Shown here in pieces: positions 2,605 to 41,643 of a DNA stretch of 42,651 nt. Under the pieces are notes generated by a model. That model was not told where the DNA came from and did no database searches. It was given only the letters and a program-made list of their open reading frames with translations. Location of the stretch: positions 1 to 42,651 of the IMG/VR virus record IMGVR_UViG_2700989535_000001. The stretch is one strand, 5' to 3'. The position numbers were made by a program, and so were the translations under genes. The number at the start of each line of letters is the position of its first letter. Position 1 is the first letter of the stretch. The stretch is from a virus (Duplodnaviria > Heunggongvirae > Uroviricota > Caudoviricetes).

Positions 2605-2889
2605 TTATTCGGTGCCGATATTTACCTTTATCGCGAACACCTTTACCGGTTTATCGCCGAAGTGCGGATGTGTGATTGTCTTGATTTCATACCCTTCATA
2701 CGGGACGTCAATTCTGCGACTGAAGTCGTCGCGCTTCGGATATCCCTTTGTGATAATCAGACGGTCATACTCACGGAGCATAATTCGCTTATTCCAGTAG
2801 TCATTACACAGGCGATACTCTTCTGTTTTCTCTCCGCGAATCATGGCATCGAAGTATTCACCTTTGACGGCAAGTTGTAGGTTAGCCAC
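2605..2889 (-). CDS. ASCH/DUF3850-like (PUA-fold) small protein
   Basis: 94-aa ORF; pattern GEYFDAMIRGEKTEEYR...LREYD...GY resembles the ASCH-like family seen in phage early regions (recalled). Confidence 0.5.
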   Translation of the reverse strand: MANLQLAVKGEYFDAMIRGEKTEEYRLCNDYWNKRIMLREYDRLIITKGYPKRDDFSRRIDVPYEGYEIKTITHPHFGDKPVKVFAIKVNIGTE

Positions 2890-3184
2890 GGTTAACCTCC
2901 TGCGGAGTAGCCTTTACAAGCACTGGTGTAAATCCATCTTCATTAAGGTTATGAATATAGACTTCCGTTCTCCTGCGCTCTTCAACGTTTAATATTGTTT
3001 CTGGATCATAAACCCATACTTTCATTCGACTATTCCATGAAGAAATCGCTTCAGATTTAGTTCGTTTTTCTGGTCCTTGGGCACCACATTTGCATGACAC
3101 ATAGCGCATTTTCCCTCTGATACTGAATGAGTATCCGATGTTAAGCACAGTGGAACCACAGAATGGGCAGCGATATAGATTCAT
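2882..3184 (-). CDS. Lar-family restriction alleviation protein (zinc-ribbon N-domain) with C-terminal extension
   Basis: CPFCGS...CKCG cysteine motif typical of Lar-family proteins; overlaps neighbours by a few nt (operon packing). Confidence 0.6.
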   Translation of the reverse strand: MNLYRCPFCGSTVLNIGYSFSIRGKMRYVSCKCGAQGPEKRTKSEAISSWNSRMKVWVYDPETILNVEERRRTEVYIHNLNEDGFTPVLVKATPQEVNRG

Positions 3185-31410: not shown

Positions 31411-32799
31411 ATGGCTACTTGGCAAGGAACAAACGGCGGATTGTTGGCTGGTATCGGCGGCGTCAACTCAAACGCTCCGAGCGTAAATGACATCGGCAAT
31501 ACGCTTCAGCTTATCAGGCAGAACAATGATATTGAGCGTTCAGGCGCTAACAATGTTGGGCTGACTGCTTTGCAAGGCCTTTCAGGTATTGCGGGGGTGT
31601 TTCAGCAGGAAAAGCAGGCTCAGCGGCAGAAAGAATTTCAGCAGGCATACGCTAATGCTTATGCGTCTGGTGATCGCGGTGCTTTGCGTCAGTTGGCTAC
31701 TCAATATCCAGAACAGATTGAATCCGTTCGTAAAGGCATGGGATTCATTGATGAAGACCAGCGTAATTCTATCGGCACCTTAGCGGCTGGCGCACGCCTT
31801 GCGTCATCGTCTCCAGAAGCAATGCAATCATGGCTGCAAAACAACGCCAAGGAACTGACTCGCGTCGGTGTTGACCCTAACAGCGTTGCTCAGATGTATC
31901 AGCAGAACCCTTCAGGATTTGGTGAGTTTGTTGATCACCTTGGAATGGCTGCTCTTGGTCCAATTGATTACTTCAATGTTCAGGACAAGATGGCTGGTCG
32001 TGAGATTGATCGCGGGAAACTTGCAGAGACAATCCGCAGCAATCAGGCTGGCGAGGCGCTAACAGCACGAGGCCAGAACATCACGATGCGCGGTCAGGAC
32101 TTATCTGCTTCTACTGCGCGACGAGGTCAGGATTTGGCAATGCAGCGAGCGTCAACAAGAGGAATCGCTGGGAATGATGAGCGTACAGTTCAGTTATCAG
32201 ATGGCAGAACTGTAACGGTAGGCGGGAAGCTTCATGGCGCTGGGGCTAATGCGTTCTACGAAGGCATCGACAACGATGGGAATATGGTTCGCGTCCCTGC
32301 CAGTTCAATCGCTGCGCCTGCAACATCGTCTGCATCAGCACAAAACTATGCCATGAAGAAGGATATCGACGCGATCGCAAATGCAGACGCTTCTGCTCTC
32401 GATTTCATGACAGGAATGACAGGTGGTGCAGGTAATCCAGCAATTGGTGCTGATGTTCGCAGCCGATTAACGGGAAAAGAGCAGCGCCAGTTATATAACT
32501 CAGCACAACGTATTCAGGGCAGAATGCAGAATCAGGGTGTGGCGGCAGCAAGGGACATGGGTGCCAGTGGTATTAACACCGTTGCAGAAGCGAAGATGTA
32601 TTTTCAGGGGATGCCGCAGGTTGACTATTCAAGCCCGGAGGCTATGCAGCAGTCGATTCGTGAGATTCAGGAATACACCAACAATTACAACCAACAATAT
32701 AACGTTAATGTTGGTAAATCTCAGCGGCAGCAATCTCAACCTGCACAGGTATCACAGCCAGCAGCCAGCAGTAACTTTTCTTCACTATGGGGTGATTAA
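31411..32799 (+). CDS. Ejection protein (P22 gp20-like)
   Basis: 462-aa ORF in the conserved position; length matches gp20. Confidence 0.7.
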
Positions 32800-34796
32800 T
32801 GGCTAAAGCATGGAAAGATGTTATCGCCTCTCCACAGTATCAGGCGTTAGCACCAGAACAAAAAGCGCAGGCTCAGGAGCAATACTTCAATGAAGTCGTG
32901 GCCCCGCAAGCCGGAGAAAATGCAGAGCAGGCTAAGCAAGCTTTCTATGCTGCCTATCCATTGCCATCTGTGCAGCCAGTGGAGACACAACAACCAGTAG
33001 CACAGCAACAACCACAGCAAAGCGGATTTATGTCTGATCTTGGTGAAGCAGTAAAAGAGACTGGTCGCGGACTGGTGCAGGCTGGCGTGAACGTGGCAAA
33101 CATACCTGCATCAGTTGCCGATGCTGTAACAAGCGCGGCGGCTTGGGCTGGCGGTAAACTCGGCATTGGCGATGGTACATATCAACCAGCGCCACGAGTA
33201 ACAACGCAGGGATTAGAGCAGGACTTTGGCCTTCAGCAAGGCGCGCTGACTCCACAAACGACAGAGGGAAGGGTATTTGCTGAAGCATTGCCTTACCTCA
33301 CTCCTGCTGGCGTTGAGAGAGCGGCGGTACAGGCACCAACACTTGCTGGTCGAATTGCTCAGGGGGCAACTCGCCTTCTCGCAGAAAACGCAGTTGGATC
33401 ACTTGCTGCAAACAGTATGAAAGATGATGCGGAAGCACTCGCCACCGATTTAGGCGTTGGTGTACTTGCTGGCGGTGCTATTAACGCTGCCGGACGTGGA
33501 TTAGGTGCTGCTTATCGTGGCGTTCGTGGTGCTATCGCGCCAGAAGCGCAGCAGGCTATCAGATTTGCAGAGCGTGAAGGAATTCCTCTGCACACCACAG
33601 ACCTGTTACAACCCACTTCCCGCGTCGGAAAAATGGCGCAGACTACAGCAGAAAATATCCCTCTGGCTGGCACAAGCGGAATGAGAGCAACGCAACAGGA
33701 AGCGAGAAGCCAGTTGGTGCAGAGATTTGCTGATAAATTCGGTGAGTATGATCCAGCGGTTGTTATTGACAGCCTTAAAGCGAAAACATCAGGAATTCGT
33801 CGTGCCGCCGGTAATCGACTGGAGCAGGTTCAGAATGCTATGGCTGGAGTAAACATTCAGCCTGCGCGAGCAATTCAGCAGATTGATACAGAAATATCTA
33901 ATCTGCAGAAGCTTGGTAAGGTCGCCGATAACGAGACTATTTCAAAACTTCAGTCCTATCGTGATGAGCTTGTTCGCAATGCTGGGCCTGATGGTCCGGT
34001 AAATCTGGATTTGAAGCAATTAAGCGATCTGCGCAGCCAGTTCAGAATGGACGTGAAGGGTGAGAGACCAGTGTTACCAAACCGTTCCGATGCTGCCATT
34101 CAGCGCGTTTACAAGGCAATGACCGACGATATCAATGGTGCCATTGGTCAGAATCTTGGCAACGATACTCTCCGTAAATATCAGCAGGCCAATGCAGTCT
34201 ACGCTGACGAAGCAGCGAAACTAAAGAATACCAGGCTGAAGAATGTTCTCATGAAAGGCGACCTGACGCCGGAAGTTGTGAATAACATGCTATTCAGCAA
34301 GAACAAATCGGAAATCAAGACGCTGTATAACTCAGTTGGTCGCGTTGGAAGAGCGCAAATGCGCAATGGCATCATTGGAAAGGCGATGGAGAAATCTGGC
34401 GGATCCCCTGACCAGTTCCTTCGGCAGCTTAATATCCTGCAAAACCAGACTGGCATCACATTTAAAGGTCAGGAAGCCGCTTATCTGAAAGGATTGAAAA
34501 ACTACCTGCAATCCACGCAGCAGGCTGCAAAAGCAGCAGTAACAACACCAACAGGGCAGCAAACCATACCGTTCATTATCGGATATGGGACGGCAATGAA
34601 CCCTGCAACAACTGGAGCAGCAGTAAGCTACGGACTTCTTGCTCGCGCCTATGAGAGTGAGCCATTCAGAAATGCAATGCTACGAATGGCAAATACCCAA
34701 CGCGGATCAACAGCGTTTGAGAAAGCCATGCAGCAGGCACAAAAGGCCATTAACGCCCTGACTCAGGGGGCTAAGTCTGATGCGCTGTCAGAATAG
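32799..34796 (+). CDS. Ejection protein (P22 gp16-like)
   Basis: 665-aa ORF in the conserved position, overlapping the gp20-like stop. Confidence 0.7.
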   Translation: MAKAWKDVIASPQYQALAPEQKAQAQEQYFNEVVAPQAGENAEQAKQAFYAAYPLPSVQPVETQQPVAQQQPQQSGFMSDLGEAVKETGRGLVQAGVNVANIPASVADAVTSAAAWAGGKLGIGDGTYQPAPRVTTQGLEQDFGLQQGALTPQTTEGRVFAEALPYLTPAGVERAAVQAPTLAGRIAQGATRLLAENAVGSLAANSMKDDAEALATDLGVGVLAGGAINAAGRGLGAAYRGVRGAIAPEAQQAIRFAEREGIPLHTTDLLQPTSRVGKMAQTTAENIPLAGTSGMRATQQEARSQLVQRFADKFGEYDPAVVIDSLKAKTSGIRRAAGNRLEQVQNAMAGVNIQPARAIQQIDTEISNLQKLGKVADNETISKLQSYRDELVRNAGPDGPVNLDLKQLSDLRSQFRMDVKGERPVLPNRSDAAIQRVYKAMTDDINGAIGQNLGNDTLRKYQQANAVYADEAAKLKNTRLKNVLMKGDLTPEVVNNMLFSKNKSEIKTLYNSVGRVGRAQMRNGIIGKAMEKSGGSPDQFLRQLNILQNQTGITFKGQEAAYLKGLKNYLQSTQQAAKAAVTTPTGQQTIPFIIGYGTAMNPATTGAAVSYGLLARAYESEPFRNAMLRMANTQRGSTAFEKAMQQAQKAINALTQGAKSDALSE

Positions 34797-34885: not shown

Positions 34886-35146
34886 TTAACTGCTGTCTTT
34901 TTTATATAGCTCTTTGAGAGTATCAAAGACAATTTTCTTAACCATATCAGATTGTTGTTCTGCCATACGCTCTGCATCGTCAATGTAAACTGATGCAGAG
35001 CTTTGTTTAGCCAATGATTCTTCAATCGCTGCAATTATCTCTGAGTTCAGCGACCTGTTATTCATCTTCGCACGCTGCTTAATTTTCGCGTGGAGTTCAT
35101 GCGGAAGTCTCAAGTGAAACTGCGCCTCGTCGTATTTGCTGTACAT
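34886..35146 (-). CDS. mnt: Mnt-like ribbon-helix-helix repressor (orphan; no arc/ant)
   Basis: Recalled similarity to P22 Mnt (F.RMP.E...K.RA..N.RS.NSE...NDAERLA.EQS.LVKK.VFDTLK.LYKK); divergent to the tailspike gene. Confidence 0.7.
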   Translation of the reverse strand: MYSKYDEAQFHLRLPHELHAKIKQRAKMNNRSLNSEIIAAIEESLAKQSSASVYIDDAERMAEQQSDMVKKIVFDTLKELYKKDSS

Positions 35147-35267
35147 GCTTGATGCCTCACCAGTTGGGTGGAATGGCATCGTAACCTACTGGATAAATAC
35201 TCAATAGTACCATTTCGGTATGCAATCACATCATGGTTGCATCATATCATTCGTCTGGAGCAATGAA

Positions 35268-37331
35268 ATGTCAGATATCACCGCAAATGTTGTGGTAAGC
35301 ATGCCTTCGCAACTCTTCACTATGGCGCGTTCTTTTAAAGCCGTAGCCAATGGCGAAATTTATATCGGGAAAATTGACACTGACCCGGTAAATCCTGAAA
35401 ACCGGATTCAGGTTTATGTAGAGAATGAAGACGGTTCTCACGTTCCTGTTTCTCAACCAATCATCATTAACGCCGCCGGTTATCCGGTATATAACGGACA
35501 GATTGCCAAATTCGTTACCGTGCAAGGCCATTCTATGGCTGTTTATGATGCATATGGTGCTAAGCAGTTCTATTTTCCGAATGTGCTGAAGTATGACCCT
35601 GATCAGTTAAGGGGGGAGTTAAGTAATAAACTTATATATGTTGCTATTAATATAGAGCAAGAGGATGTCCCAGAGATATTTAATCATGTAATGATTCATG
35701 GTAGATATGTTTATGAATCATCCACCCTCACGCTCACCCCAGATGGGATATTAATTATCAGGAGCAGAAACGGTAGGATATTTGAATTAAAGAAAACCAG
35801 ATCTATTTATGCTTCTGATTTTTGCAATGACGCACAAACACTACAAAAGGCGTATGAATCCGCAGCGTCTATTGGTGCAGAATTCATTATAGATAAATCA
35901 TTTGAAGGCTTGATGGCTGTGAATGAAGACCCTTTTTCCCCTGGAAATGATGCTTTTAAATCTGTGTTAAGATGCGTAGATAATAGCACTATAAGATTTG
36001 AAAAGGATGGGGCATTAAAACTAGCAAATCAAAACAGGCCACAAAGCCATATCATTTACATAGCAAACGGTGTTAAAAATGTAAATATTTATAATCCTGT
36101 ACTGGAAGGTGATCGGTTAACAAACACATCCGAAGGAGAACATGGGTGGGGGCTTACAATACTTCAATCATCTAACATTCGTATTATTGGTGGACTGTAT
36201 ACCAACATGTTTGGCGACGGAATATACATAGGAATGAAGTGGGGGACTAACGATGGAACGGTTCCAGAAAATATCTATATAGAAAAACCGATCATCAAAC
36301 AATGCAGGCGTAACGGTATAAGCCTAACGTCAGGTGAAAACATAATAATAGTTAATCCTGAGATTTATAATATTGGTGACTACGGAGGTGTTACAGGTGC
36401 TATGCCGAAATCTGGAATAGATATTGAACCAGAGGCAGACGAAAGTGTGCCTGGACACACTGTCCCTCGGCTGATTAATTGTGAAATCTCAAACCCATAC
36501 ATCAATGGTGCGTATACTGGTTTGGAACTTAATATTTTCCCTGACGGTCTTGTAGCTGATGTAATCATCTCTGGGAATACAACACTAACTAATGTGACTA
36601 ACAGAGGTGTGACAGCTACTAGAGTTAATGGAAATGGTATAGGAAAGATCTTAATTGATAGAGTAGTATTTAAAACGTCTCCTTTAGACTTTTGTGTTTT
36701 TGAAATGCTGGGGGATGACCGCCTTTTTGTGGAAATAGGTGAAATTGTTGATGAAACTACTATAGCAGGTGGGGATAAAATAATCAGGTTATTACCTAGA
36801 ACTATTGATCCAATAAGCATCGGGGTATCTCGAAATTTTAAGAATCTGGTTATTAAAAAATGTACATCTACTATATCAACATTTTTAGTTTTGGCTGGCA
36901 TTAGTTTAAAAGAGTACTTTATTGATATACATATAGGAAAGGAGGAAGATAATATAACCACATCATTAGCCTATGATAGTGTAGATACTGGCCCTGCCCA
37001 GATAAGAGGATTTATTGGAGGGATTGCCACAATAACATCTTTTCAAAATACAAAGCTGTTAAATAATACCATTATATTTAACCATAGCACTAATGATATT
37101 GATATAATCGCAAGCAGCGCTGGTGATTTCAGAGAGTTAAAAATAATAAGAGCTATGACAACCTCATCACCAGGCAGAGCAATAGGCGTAGCAAATATAA
37201 GATTTGTAAGTAACTCTTCAGAAGTAACGCAAGTAGCCACCACGGAATTCGGCTCTTGGATTAAAATAAAAAACAAAGAAGGCATGTATAGTGAAATAAC
37301 TGGGGCGTATGGTAATTGGATTTTCTCTTAG
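35268..37331 (+). CDS. Tailspike (P22-like head-binding N-domain; divergent receptor-binding domain)
   Basis: N-terminal about 120 aa match recalled P22 gp9 (DITANVVVS...[20 protein letters not shown]...VLKYDPDQ); the remainder is AT-rich and unlike P22 gp9 as I recall it. Start at the internal ATG with GGAG SD. Confidence 0.8.
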
Positions 37332-37389
37332 TTAGCTTTGATTTTTTGTAGATAGCATCCCCCATCAATCATATTAATGGGGGATGTGT

Positions 37390-38820
37390 TTATTTTAACT
37401 TTATTACAATAATGTCTTTGGTTGCATGAATGCTATATATATTATTGTCAGAAATTAGATTCCCATTATCTGATATTGATACAGCTTTGTCTGCAGCTGA
37501 TGGCTCAGCGCTAACAACATCTTTTAGTCCATTTCTCATCAATGTAAAAACTCCGCCATCATATCTATTTGTAAATATAGGTGGCAATATATCAGATATT
37601 ACTGGAAATATTTTCTTGTTTATGCTTGCGACAGATGAGTTCTTCGCGTAGCCGTCAATAACAATAAAATCGAGATATTTGGCTTTACTATTATTAATAT
37701 CATTGATCATTTGAAGTGATAAATTATTTTGGAATTTAAATTCTTCTCGTGAAGCATTAATTGTCGCAAAGAATATGGACAGCATGGGAATTGCAATGAA
37801 TAATGACAGCAAGTAATTAATTCTCCAATTAAGGATCACTGAGCCAATCAAAGGAAGCGCCATTATAAAGACACCAAATCCGATAAATATCCTTGATACA
37901 AATACTGGTGATTTGCCAAACACAGACACACCAAAAGAGGAAAAGAAGCAACCAAATATAGATATTGCAATAAAAAATAGTAATTGAAATTTCTTTCGTT
38001 TAATAGCGAAAAACACAGATGATATGGCTATTATTGATAGAAATATATAAAGAGGTATTCCAATACCACTATGAAGAGCAACATCAATTTTTCTAACTGC
38101 GTTAATTATATTCTCATAAACATTGATGACTCCACCTTTATTTAATTCAACTATTTGAGCATATTTCGAGAAGTTATTGTTTAAAGATAATGATTCAAGT
38201 ATTAATTTTGAGTATATAATATATGAAGAGACTACACATGTGACAGATAATAGCACTCTGCTGGCTATTGATGTAAACTTTTCCCCTTTCAATGCTTCCA
38301 TTGCAACCACTACTGATGCAAGCCCAATGTACACATTTATTGAGGCCTGATACAATCCAAGCGATATTGTTAGGCACAGTAGTGATGATATGGCGAATGT
38401 TCTACTTTTTGTAAAAATGAATGGAATAGCAGAAAGTGCAATAGATAAAATCATAAATGCACCATCATATCTAAATAGCATATTAGACAAAAGAAAAGGG
38501 TTAAGCATAAATATTGCAAAAGTTATATTAACTATAACCCCATCTTTTGATAGTATATTTTGCAATGCCTTTGTTAGTGATATAACAAGAAGCACAGACG
38601 TTAAAACTAGTGGTAGTGGGTAAATATCTGGTATGCTTTCAGATCTAAAGAAAATAAATGATTTATAGAATAAATCTGCAAAAGGCCTTCCATCTTCAGA
38701 CCAACCATAATATCCCCAATACGATCTAAATACATCATCATAGTAGTAAATATTACATGTTATAATAAAAAACAAAATAACAAATAGTATGAAGTAGTTG
38801 ATTTTAATTGTTTTATTCAT
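37390..38820 (-). CDS. Serotype-specific O-antigen glucosyltransferase (GtrC-type polytopic membrane protein)
   Basis: 476-aa ORF with many TM segments, immediately downstream of gtrB in an operon; very AT-rich. Confidence 0.65.
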
Positions 38821-39737
38821 TTTTTCTTTCTCTTAACAATGAATCTAGGTCTATCTTTGCACTCTATGTAAATTCTTCCTATATATTCACCAAGCACGCC
38901 AATTCCAATGAGTTGAATCCCTCCTAAGAAAAGAATGGACACAATAAGTGATGGGTATCCCCTAACCGGATTGCCAAAAACCAAAGTGTCGATAATCATC
39001 CATGTGCCATATAAAAGAGCCATTCCTGCGACGAATAGCCCAATATAAGTCCACATACGCAGAGGGAAAGTGGAAAAGCTTGTTATACCTTCAAGTGCTA
39101 GGTTCCATAATTTCCACCCATTGAATTTCGTGCTGCCAGCTACACGCTCAGCACGGACATACTCAACAACATCTGTATCCCCACCAACCCAACTAAGAAT
39201 ACCTTTCATGAAAAGATTGCGTTCTGGCAGGAGCTTAATATTCTCCACTACCTCGCGAGACATCAGCCTGAAATCTCCAACATTTTCCTCTATCTGCGGA
39301 TTGCTTATTTTATTGTGGAGCTTATAGAACCACTCAGCCGTTTTTCGCTTCAGTCTGCCATCCGTTGAGCGGTCAGATCGTTTAGCAAGCACCATATCAG
39401 CGCCTGCCTGCCATTTTTCAATCAGTTGAGGTATTACCTCAATCGGGTCTTGCAGGTCAACATCAATAGGAATAACAGCATCGCCTGTTGCATGGTCTAA
39501 CCCTGCAAACAATGCTGGTTCTTTACCAAAGTTGCGCGTAAATGACAGCGGAACAACTAGCGGATCAGAAACAGCCAGAGCGTTAATTATTGACTCTGTA
39601 GAGTCTTTGCTGCCGTCATTTATGAAAACAATTTCCACCTCATATGGCTTCAACTCTTCGAATTCACGTACCGTTTTATAAAAAATTGGTATCGCTTCTT
39701 CTTCATTGAAGACAGGAACTACAAGAGATATCTTCAT
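38817..39737 (-). CDS. gtrB: Bactoprenol glucosyltransferase GtrB (GT2 family)
   Basis: Recalled near-identity to E. coli YfdH/GtrB ([17 protein letters not shown]...); two C-terminal TM helices. Confidence 0.9.
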
Positions 39738-40096
39738 TTCGCATCCCTAAAGACAATGAACTTTGAATATACGAAACCGCACACCAGGCTGATGGCGGAG
39801 AAAGTGATAAGGGTTAGCATCGGGGGAAGTGCGCATCTATCAGCAGCCCATCCAACAGTTGCACTCAGTGTTCCCATGAACCCGACATATAACATGTAGC
39901 GCATCGTTGTAGTCGATGCTTTGAATGTGAATTTTGCATTCGCGAAGAAGCTAAAACTCACAGCCACAACGAAACCTGCGAAGTTTGCCAGAGCCTGATT
40001 TGTATGCGCGGCATAGATACATACACCAAAAACCACCCAGTGTATAAGTGTGTTCAGCACACCAATCGAGGTGTACTTTGCAAATAGCTTTAACAT
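39734..40096 (-). CDS. gtrA: GtrA flippase (bactoprenol-linked glucose translocase)
   Basis: 120-aa 4-TM protein; recalled near-identity to E. coli YfdG/GtrA. Confidence 0.9.
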
Positions 40097-40249
40097 TTCT
40101 TCTGTCAGCTAATAATCAAAGGCATGAAGTCTATCATCCAAGTCTCAATCGATCGATGACTTGCTGTGGTTGATAAGACAAAACTGAGACAAACAAAGCT
40201 TTATACTGGATTGCAAGGCTTTGTGCTCTTCGATAGTGGTTAAGGTGGA

Positions 40250-41407
40250 TCACTCCACATTTTCATCAATCCAGTCCGCCCACCATTGCATCATTTCTCT
40301 GCGTTTATCGAGATACTGAGCATGGTTGTAAATCCCGCGCACAGATCCGCCGTTGGCATGTGCCAGTTGCACTTCAATAGCATCAGCAGGCCATTCGTGC
40401 TCGTTCATAATCGTGCTGAATTCATGCCTGAATCCGTGACCGCTTTCCAGACCCTCATAGCCGATTTGTTTGATCACAAGCAATACCGCGTTCTCGCAGA
40501 TTGGCTTCTTCTTATCGTTGCGCCCGGCAAAAACAAACTCTGATACTGGTTTGGTGATTGAGCTTAGCGTAGTGAGAAGTTCAACTACCTGGTCTGACAT
40601 AGGAACCACATGAATTTTGCGTCCCTTCATCACATTGGCGTCGATGGTGATAATCCTGTTTTCAAAATCGACGTTCTTCCATTGCATGGAACGAAGCTCT
40701 TTCGTTCTTAGGGCTGTGTAGCGTAAAACTTTGGTCGCAATGAGCGATACGATACTTCCTGAAAATGTTGCCAGTGCTTTGTTGAATGCAGGGATCTGGT
40801 CTGCAGGAAGAAACGGGAAGTTCTTCTTGCGGTATCCCTTCATGGCGTCAGCAAGGTCAGGTGCCGGGTTATATTTAGCCCTGCCGGTGACAATAGCGTA
40901 ACGGAAAACCTCGCCGCATCTTCTGCGGGCTTTGTTGGCTCTCTCCATTGCGCCGCGATCTTCAAATCTGCGGATTACTTCCAGCAGTTGCATCGGCTCA
41001 ATATCTTGAATTTCAAGGCCGCCGATGATAGGTAAAATGTCGTCATCAAACATTTTTGCAAGTTCAGTCGCATACCCTACTGACCATACTTGCTTCTTGT
41101 GCTCGTACCATTCTTTGTAAATCGCACTAAAGGAATTGTTGTTAGACGAAGCCTTTTTCGCTTTTACCGGATCGATGCCAACCGAGATGTCTTTCCTCGC
41201 AGTCCATGCTTTATCCCTTGCCTCCTGCAAAGTCATAAGCGGATATTTTCCTACGGTCAGTATTTTTTCCTTACCGTCAATCTTGTAGCGAAGCTGCCAT
41301 ACCTTTTTCCCGGATACAGGGACATAAAGGTACAGGCCATTACCATCGAGAAGGCGGTATGGTTTTTCTTTCGGCTTTGCTGCTTCAATCTGCTTAACGG
41401 TGAGCAT
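40250..41407 (-). CDS. intS: Tyrosine integrase (P4-type, IntS-like)
   Basis: Recalled similarity to K-12 IntS from MLTVKQIEAAKPKEKPYRL; catalytic HGFRHEF and RGIYNHAQY motifs; adjacent to the tRNA and att core. Confidence 0.85.
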   Translation of the reverse strand: MLTVKQIEAAKPKEKPYRLLDGNGLYLYVPVSGKKVWQLRYKIDGKEKILTVGKYPLMTLQEARDKAWTARKDISVGIDPVKAKKASSNNNSFSAIYKEWYEHKKQVWSVGYATELAKMFDDDILPIIGGLEIQDIEPMQLLEVIRRFEDRGAMERANKARRRCGEVFRYAIVTGRAKYNPAPDLADAMKGYRKKNFPFLPADQIPAFNKALATFSGSIVSLIATKVLRYTALRTKELRSMQWKNVDFENRIITIDANVMKGRKIHVVPMSDQVVELLTTLSSITKPVSEFVFAGRNDKKKPICENAVLLVIKQIGYEGLESGHGFRHEFSTIMNEHEWPADAIEVQLAHANGGSVRGIYNHAQYLDKRREMMQWWADWIDENVE

Positions 41408-41568: not shown

Positions 41569-41583
41569 TGGTGTCCCCTGCAG
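41569..41583. repeat. att core copy (TGGTGTCCCCTGCAG) overlapping the tRNA-Arg 3' end
   Basis: Exact direct repeat of 1690..1704. Confidence 0.8.
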
Positions 41584-41643
41584 GAATCGAACCTGCAATT
41601 AGCCCTTAGGAGGGGCTCGTTATATCCATTTAACTAAGAGGAC
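41569..41643 (-). tRNA. argW: tRNA-Arg (anticodon CCU)
   Basis: 75-nt sequence whose reverse complement reads GTCCTCTTAGTTAAATGGATATAACGAGCCCCTCCTAAGGGCTAATTGCAGGTTCGATTCCTGCAGGGGACACCA with CCA end; cloverleaf-compatible. Confidence 0.9.

Follow-up and report, generated by a model that had tools for sequence, protein, structure and literature searches.

An O128-associated pair of tailspike receptor-binding domain and glucosyltransferase gene at the receptor-specificity end of a P22-like prophage of Escherichia coli

Introduction

The locus described here lies at one end of the virus record IMGVR_UViG_2700989535_000001, which was analysed over its full length of 42,651 nucleotides (in the following called the window). 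Here a P22-like (Lederbergvirus-type) prophage, integrated at argW/yfdC of E. coli, has its receptor-specificity end, which comprises a tailspike gene together with an adjacent gtr operon, a combination to which an earlier note, made from the letters of the window alone, had drawn attention. Among the described systems, coliphage Hf4s (Lederbergvirus, MT833387; host E. coli 4s) resembles it in gene order, which in Hf4s runs gp16, tailspike, third gtr gene, gtrB, gtrA, int, xis and in the window gp16, tailspike, gtrS, gtrB, gtrA, int. The amino acid identities amount to 98.7% for int, 96.7% for GtrA and 92% for GtrB. In contrast, neither the receptor-binding domain (RBD) of the tailspike nor the third gtr gene is detectably similar between the two, and the head-binding domains are only 60% identical. 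While GtrC of Hf4s is a 410-amino-acid, epsilon34-like protein that does not belong to the Glucos_trans_II type, GtrS of the window does, and while Hf4s targets an O22-like antigen, the module of the window is tied to serogroup O128. For lysogens of Hf4s it was described that a glycosyl branch is added to the O-polysaccharide and that O-antigen-dependent phages are blocked (PMC10743462).

Phage P22 (gp9 and gtrABC) shares with the window the PF09008 domain, a beta-helix tailspike and a gtr operon beside tailspike and int, as well as the superinfection-related glucosylation of the O-antigen, which for the window is predicted. The two differ in the integration site, in the body of the tailspike, which shares no sequence relationship with the gp9 endorhamnosidase, and in GtrS, whose identity to P22 GtrC is only 28% and is limited to the N-terminal half. 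A gtr cassette of three genes is likewise found in the Shigella flexneri phages SfII, SfV, SfI, SfIV and SfX: its gtrA and gtrB are conserved (84-86% nucleotide identity), and its type-specific transferase is polytopic, AT-rich and variable. However, these phages represent other virion types with tail fibres instead of a P22-type tailspike, and no significant tblastn match was obtained between their type-specific Gtr proteins and GtrS of the window. Finally, in the RBD subtypes described by Pas et al. 2023 (PMC10408124), a genus-conserved anchor carries an RBD which is shared horizontally across genera and tracks the O-serogroup; the occurrence of the present RBD family in several phage types resembles this situation. 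The joint inheritance of an RBD with an adjacent modification gene lay outside that study.

Compared to these systems, the module of the window adds a new O128-associated specificity pair to a type of element that is well known. The gain is modest: the module can be assigned to O128, its cassette has sharp limits, and members of the two families of RBD and GtrS occur jointly in different types of phage and families of bacteria.

Results and discussion

Boundaries and carriers of the specificity cassette

The features of the module are as follows (positions refer to the window):

35268..37331, plus strand: tailspike gene, according to Pfam and the RefSeq start
35268..35606, plus strand: head-binding (virion anchor) domain of the tailspike, residues 1-113, ending in the KYDPDQ hinge (Pfam PF09008, E=1.9e-65, full-length match)
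35607..37331, plus strand: RBD of the tailspike, residues 114-687, a right-handed parallel beta-helix in the predicted structure
36109..36408, plus strand: gene-conversion tract in the RBD, residues ~281-381 including D317, with ~21% difference in the carriers E41 and BUCT2930
37348..37393, plus strand: intergenic hairpin followed by UGUGUUUAUUUU; the core CATCCCCCAT (37356-37365) pairs with ATGGGGGATG (37377-37386)
37390..38820, minus strand: gtrS (gtrC-type), serotype-specific GT-C glucosyltransferase of 476 amino acids (Pfam Glucos_trans_II)
38817..39737, minus strand: gtrB, bactoprenol (undecaprenyl phosphate, Und-P) glucosyltransferase (Pfam GT2, PF00535)
39734..40096, minus strand: gtrA, Und-P-glucose flippase (Pfam PF04138, GtrA_DPMS_TM)
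35609..38822, no strand: specificity cassette of ~3.2 kb comprising RBD, terminator hairpin and gtrS; the right edge lies at 38797-38822, depending on the backbone compared

The limits of the cassette are clearly observable in prophages with a similar backbone. Strain L65 is 96-97% identical to the window up to 35608 and again from 38798, with an unrelated RBD and gtrS in between, while in ET665 the homology extends up to 35608 and resumes at 38823, again with unrelated sequence between these points. The left break is situated just past the hinge codons and the right break at the stop of gtrB and the start of gtrS, and characterised phages lose homology at the same two edges. The head-binding domain with its KYDPDQ hinge is the left recombination anchor and the 3' end of gtrB the right one.

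Searched for separately, the RBD and gtrS were each found in exactly the same six of 5,426 complete E. coli genomes. In these six carriers the core of the cassette (RBD, hairpin and gtrS) is 99-100% identical apart from the tract 36109-36408, while the flanks show identities of 91-100% for the head-binding domain, 95-100% for gtrA, 87-100% for the region upstream of gtrA and 96-98% for int. Such a contrast between core and flanks would be expected if a young cassette spread through older and diverged backbones by homologous recombination. The differences between carriers extend beyond the module: JB2 lacks any megablast match to the window over the whole head-gene block, and E41 contains different terminase genes and a chromosomal flank that is 4.5% off the other two compared. 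For the RBD and gtrS alike, ratios of nonsynonymous to synonymous substitutions (dN/dS) of 0.09-0.20 were determined, indicating purifying selection. In WS4437A-1 (L017, NZ_CP035822.1, 1-9144) only a prophage remnant is left, in which tailspike, gtrS, gtrB, gtrA and int are intact, and therefore the specificity module can outlive the phage. Otherwise this remnant keeps dsdX, a helicase fragment and a truncated gp16.

Linkage of the two specificity genes

A sampling of 14 cassettes at the locus comprised 12 distinct combinations of RBD and gtrS. Only three cassettes share an RBD, and in these gtrS is identical, too; mixed pairs, i.e. one RBD type with two gtrS types or the reverse, were not present among the 14. 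Furthermore, diverged pairs of RBD and gtrS stand next to each other in entries retrieved from large protein and contig collections, namely in L008, L010, L004/L005 and L021, the last of which is a prophage of Proteus mirabilis. The identities to the window are:

L008: RBD 63%, GtrS 56%
L004: RBD 56%, GtrS 53%
Proteus L021: RBD 35%, GtrS 34%

Over 10 comparisons, the pairwise identities of RBD and GtrS correlate with r = 0.91, a value that is descriptive only since the pairs are non-independent, and GtrB is 82-100% identical across these comparisons. L008 and L010 contain P22-type tailspikes. The integrase of L010 (13126-14289) shows no significant similarity to IntS of the window, which indicates that the cassette is not tied to the argW integration module. 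L004/L005 originate from a non-E. coli enterobacterium and comprise a Tail_spike_N anchor in a prophage at the yfdC site, which contains a tape-measure gene and is thus not P22-like. Altogether, the pair is seen in P22-like podoviruses, in prophages with a tape-measure gene and in prophages of Morganellaceae. The shared junctions, the co-occurrence in six of 5,426 genomes and the adjacency of diverged pairs support the idea of the earlier note that the specificities of recognition and modification were acquired together.

In L004 (11536-11994) and L005 (4320-4778), a Y1 transposase gene of the IS200/IS605 type is located between gtrS and tailspike, at the place of the terminator hairpin in the window. 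A comparison of gtrB of the window with that of L008 (19-939) showed a proportion of synonymous differences (pS) of 0.82, i.e. synonymous saturation, at 86% identity of the proteins. What looks like conservation of gtrB therefore reflects old lineages under strong constraint and not recent copies.

Association with serogroup O128

One of the carriers had been typed as O128:H27. In this genome the rfb cluster was located and its O128-specific wzx-wzy block was taken as query. The block was found in 23 of the 5,426 genomes, and all six carriers of the module are among these 23 (hypergeometric P=3e-15, or 7e-8 with only three carriers counted as independent). At more than 95% nucleotide identity, all hosts of the RBD are thus O128 (6/6), while it is absent from the 5,403 non-O128 genomes; homologues of 56-70% identity are carried by PW8, L011, L004, L008 and L010. 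The carriers were isolated from a rabbit farm, human, cattle, civet, pig and one unrecorded source in five countries, and their rfb sequences fall into at least three variants. Several prophage backbones and no fewer than two host backgrounds are represented among them.

It was shown before that the RBD subtype of a prophage predicts the O-serogroup of its host and that the host of a prophage with a single RBD indicates the specificity (Pas et al. 2023, PMC10408124); the 14 serogroups to which that study assigns RBDs in its text and supplements do not include O128. Based on the distribution of the module, O128 is probably both receptor and acceptor. Whereas the earlier note regarded the recognised O-antigen as not deducible from sequence alone, the module is tied to this serogroup by the comparison of genomes.

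Tailspike

The open reading frame (ORF) of the tailspike opens at 35220, the Pfam Head_binding domain begins at residue 17 of this frame, and the RefSeq start in (near-)identical prophages is equivalent to 35268. PDB matches to the tailspikes of Sf6, P22 and HK620 (phmmer) are confined to residues 1-125, with an identity of ~90% to Sf6 over residues 1-122. No sequence similarity was detected by phmmer between the tailspike body and P22 gp9, the P22 chains matching residues 1-125 only. This agrees with the chimeric tailspike proposed earlier, in which a P22-type head-binding domain is joined to a body without similarity to gp9. The structure prediction of the C-terminal part, suggested in the earlier note as a check, resulted in a confident monomer model of a long right-handed parallel beta-helix (pLDDT, the predicted local distance difference test, of 91; predicted template modelling score, pTM, of 0.88). 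Residues D317, D385 and E387, located in the motifs GDGIYIG and GIDIEPE, are invariant in homologues of the RBD down to 20% identity. This suggests an active site with these three as candidate catalytic residues, and the RBD is presumed to be an O128 O-antigen depolymerase.

The RBD family was found in Lederbergvirus-type prophages, in the lytic Gamaleyavirus PW8, in siphophages and in a Proteus prophage. NCBIfam contains no model matching the tailspike or GtrS, and searches for near-identical sequences as well as searches at protein level in 50,697 phage records returned no characterised phage with the RBD or gtrS of the window. A near-identical counterpart in a characterised serotype-converting phage, which would have spoken against the proposal of the earlier note, is therefore absent from these records. 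The only fairly close RBD among them, with 67% amino acid identity, lies in an unannotated stretch of PW8 (vB_EcoP_PW8, PQ362703.1, 1-2135), where no coding sequence but only a misc_feature 'similar to hypothetical protein' is given at the end of the record. Annotation-based surveys would overlook this homologue.

The tract 36109-36408 differs between carriers. E41 and BUCT2930 show 63 differences in 300 bp here compared to 0-2 per 100 bp elsewhere; their version is 89% identical to PW8 and only 79% identical to the window, while the version of the window is 85% identical to the lytic siphophage L011. The tract spans the conserved GDGIYIG motif, and the amino acid changes are few and mostly conservative. 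From the PW8-like tract it follows that segments of the RBD are still exchanged between temperate and lytic phages. On the opposite strand, a 193-amino-acid ORF inside the tailspike gene (36380-36961, minus strand) is annotated in no carrier and most likely arises merely because the strand opposite to the tailspike gene is rich in AT and poor in stop codons.

gtr operon and intergenic hairpin

The three adjacent minus-strand genes and their Pfam identities are in accordance with the gtrA/gtrB/gtrS operon named in the earlier note. For GtrS, ~10-11 transmembrane helices, a soluble C-terminal domain of 122 amino acids and an invariant DD (D28, D29) after the first helix were determined. With a gene for a variable polytopic GT-C transferase directly downstream of gtrB in one operon, the arrangement is that of a Gtr three-component system. 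The predicted structure of GtrS reached a pLDDT of 86, and no sequence relative was found in the PDB. By analogy to the described systems, GtrS would add glucose to a residue of the O-unit and thereby cause serotype conversion. The nucleotide identity of gtrB to its counterparts in SfII, SfV, SfI and Hf4s amounts to 84-87%.

The convergent stop codons of tailspike and gtrS are separated by a gap of 58 bp with a perfect 10-bp hairpin. Its RNA fold has a free energy of -21.6 kcal/mol (z = -3.7), a U-rich tract follows it on the strand of the tailspike, and it is 100% conserved in all six carriers. The hairpin was spotted by eye and confirmed by folding, its loop exceeding the limit of a simple terminator scan, and is probably the intrinsic terminator of the late tailspike transcript. 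Upstream of gtrA no consensus promoter was found, the region containing 14 promoter-like sites compared to 22.5 in shuffled sequence. Phase variation of the Salmonella type, controlled by Dam and OxyR, was considered but found no support, as only two GATC sites, ~97 bp apart at 40151 and 40248, are present nearby instead of the four within paired OxyR half-sites that mark such operons; this verdict is based on the GATC layout and not on a formal scan for OxyR sites near gtrA.

Base composition

The content of guanine and cytosine (GC) in the window outside the module is 48.4%, and 1.5-kb windows taken there show a mean of 48.3% with a standard deviation of 2.6 and a minimum of 42.2%. Within the module, values of 43.8% for the N-terminal domain of the tailspike, 36.6% for its body, 30.6% for gtrS, 42.2% for gtrB and 45.5% for gtrA were determined. 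The lowest 1.5-kb value of all 42.6 kb (30.9%) was found at 37401 inside gtrS. Compared to the background, the dip thus amounts to ~4.5 standard deviations for the tailspike body and ~6.5 for gtrS, and the GC content at third codon positions (GC3) is 0.29 and 0.24, respectively. The step in composition within the tailspike coincides with the sharp break of homology at 35608. These values confirm the AT-rich tailspike body from ~35600 and the AT-rich gtrS that had been noticed before. The further statement that gtrA and gtrB are near the average of the genome applies in part: both lie above the RBD and gtrS, but at an intermediate 42-45% they remain below 48.4%.

Proposed mechanism and alternative explanations

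It is considered likely that the cassette represents a matched pair of an O128 reader (RBD) and an O128 editor (GtrS), which is exchanged as a unit and brings about serotype conversion of the lysogen. This reading draws on the gene identities, the folds, the operon structure, the homology of GtrA and GtrB to characterised systems specific for glucose, the cassette boundaries, the exclusive co-occurrence, the O128 association, the purifying selection and the linkage of diverged homologues determined here; from these we infer O128 as actual receptor and acceptor, glucose as the sugar, the depolymerase activity and the block of self-adsorption. The single steps are proposed by analogy to P22, the Shigella Sf phages and Hf4s (PMC7685785, PMC2629481, PMC10743462). 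To begin infection, the RBD would bind and probably cleave the O128 O-antigen. In the lysogen, GtrB would form Und-P-glucose, GtrA would flip it to the periplasm, and there GtrS would transfer the glucose as a side-branch onto a specific residue of the O128 unit. The modified chain would no longer be a substrate for the phage's own tailspike, so that lysogens would be protected and released virions spared, and serotype conversion would stop adsorption to lysogens both by the phage itself and by others using the same receptor. Since conserved anchors lie on both sides of the cassette, one double crossover between the head-binding hinge and the 3' end of gtrB would swap both specificities, which would thus be inherited as a unit.

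A more far-reaching version can be put forward only tentatively. It comprises a chemically undescribed glucosylated O128, which might explain some of the antigenic heterogeneity of O128, and an old, co-diverging pair of reader and editor, the AT-richness of which is actively maintained. This version is derived from the parallel identities of RBD and GtrS of 100/100, 63/56, 56/53 and 35/34% and from the transfer of both as a unit between the P22-like, tape-measure-containing and Morganellaceae elements; the AT-richness of the pair would then not stem from a donor.

Several observations weigh against the proposed pair of reader and editor. The predicted fold does not distinguish between a hydrolase, a lyase and a non-catalytic protein for the RBD. 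The canonical O128 unit was described as a tetrasaccharide backbone with one side-branch, for which only L-fucose (L-Fuc), D-galactose (D-Gal) and N-acetyl-D-galactosamine (D-GalNAc) are named (PMC10304059). With no glucose named in this unit, a glucosylated O128 is predicted, not observed, and the glucose branch would therefore be an undescribed modification. The module is present in only 6 of the 23 O128 genomes, and the six carriers are not fully independent samples. Since the rfb locus lies outside the window, the serogroup is not readable from the window itself. Moreover, GtrS of L004 and L008 is 88% identical while the RBD is only 62% identical, and temperate prophages of Providencia and Pectobacterium contain a homologous RBD with no adjacent gtr. 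In the case of PW8 and L011, an RBD without gtr is expected because lytic phages do not lysogenise.

The co-occurrence of RBD and gtrS might also reflect mere neighbourhood in a conserved layout combined with separate filtering of each gene by the O-antigen, so that neither a transfer as unit nor a functional coupling would be involved. All P22-like prophages at the locus set both genes side by side, the divergence of GtrS and RBD is uncoupled between L004 and L008, and the gene-conversion tract hits the RBD alone. However, this would leave unexplained that the junctions are common, that the block, with the hairpin, is 99-100% identical throughout whereas its flanks differ by up to 9-13%, and that the same family pair occurs with three anchor and virion types and two unrelated integrases. 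We therefore regard a mere neighbourhood as unlikely. Concerning the serogroup, the link to O128 could be an artefact of sampling or clonality, the true target being another glycan, e.g. capsule, or an O128 chain modified by another element, as phage epsilon34 needs epsilon15. Only six carriers are available, distant relatives of the RBD are capsule depolymerases of Acinetobacter and Klebsiella, and the publication on PW8 names no host serotypes and thus neither confirms nor contradicts an O128 specificity. Against this stands that the carriers originate from six source types and five countries, that they differ in their head genes (three sets), include one prophage remnant and represent two or more host backgrounds, that neither gene occurs in any of the 5,403 non-O128 genomes, and that the partner gene encodes an O-antigen-modifying enzyme. 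This explanation appears very unlikely.

A further explanation, which follows the earlier note in assuming a low-GC donor organism, is that the RBD and gtrS were imported from it jointly and recently and owe their AT-richness to a composition that is not yet ameliorated. It could account for a block 12-18 GC points under its backbone, for homologues in the low-GC genera Proteus and Providencia and for the circulation of the RBD in lytic phages of 41-43% GC. However, each cassette sampled at the locus, regardless of its sequence family, combines an AT-rich gtrS with a low-GC RBD; in all 14, gtrS shows 30-37% and the RBD 35-47% GC, below the background. The gtrS homologues of L004, L008 and L010 have reached synonymous saturation compared to the window (pS 0.75-0.78) and still hold a GC3 of 0.24-0.28 in backbones of ~51% GC. 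Even in Proteus, the pair (RBD 27%, gtrS 23%) lies 12-16 points under its own backbone of 39%, and wzx and wzy of O128, the genes that build the receptor, are equally AT-rich with 28-29% GC. Because all sampled cassettes, the saturated homologues and the Proteus pair keep the offset, the AT-richness is best read as a maintained property of this class of cassettes and not as the fading signature of one recent import. A low-GC donor is accordingly very unlikely, and the AT-richness of such cassettes should be taken as poor evidence of recent foreign origin.

Prophage element and neighbouring genes

The surroundings of the module comprise the following features:

34886..35146, minus strand: gene for an Arc/Mnt-type repressor, upstream of the tailspike (Pfam Arc, Repressor_Mnt)
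40250..41407, minus strand: IntS-type tyrosine integrase (Pfam Phage_integrase, Phage_int_M, Arm-DNA-bind_3; intS in RefSeq carriers)
41569..41643, minus strand: tRNA-Arg(CCU), i.e. argW, the integration site (ARAGORN)

The attachment (att) core GGAATCGAACCTGCAA is located at 41583-41598, and a 16-bp exact copy of the 3' end of the tRNA was found at 1998-2013. Based on these repeats, the prophage extends from ~1998 to 41598 (~39.6 kb). Directly past the tRNA, yfdC was identified by Pfam and by the RefSeq annotation of the carriers. The Arc/Mnt-type repressor gene is part of the conserved left flank and lies outside the cassette; an Arc family protein is annotated by RefSeq at the equivalent position in all carriers.

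The left chromosomal flank (1-1248) encodes a LacY-family sugar symporter cut by the start of the window, which may be the cscB sucrose permease of the argW-dsd island. The early prophage genes include a Lar-type restriction-alleviation protein (2882-3184). Over the whole window GATC is strongly depleted, with 101 sites compared to an expected 191 +/- 13 in dinucleotide-preserving shuffles (100 of 100 shuffles at or above the observed number). At the junction of the DNA-ejection ORFs 31411-32799 and 32799-34796, a region of ~1 kb (31949-33015) showed no megablast match in three compared carrier prophages, while both of its sides match these at 96-98%. This region resembles a further variable module of small size.

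Conclusions

The locus provides a clean natural example of receptor reading and receptor editing swapped as one 3.2-kb block between conserved anchors, a feature of use when host range and superinfection exclusion are engineered jointly. Serogroup O128 includes enterotoxigenic, enteroaggregative and Shiga-toxin-producing strains, and the tailspike is a candidate O128-specific protein that could serve the detection, typing or targeting of O128 E. coli. If the proposed mechanism is true, a quarter of the sequenced O128 strains (6/23) would display a prophage-glucosylated O-antigen. Such a change would be invisible to serotyping based on gene clusters and could alter both phage susceptibility and antibody recognition.

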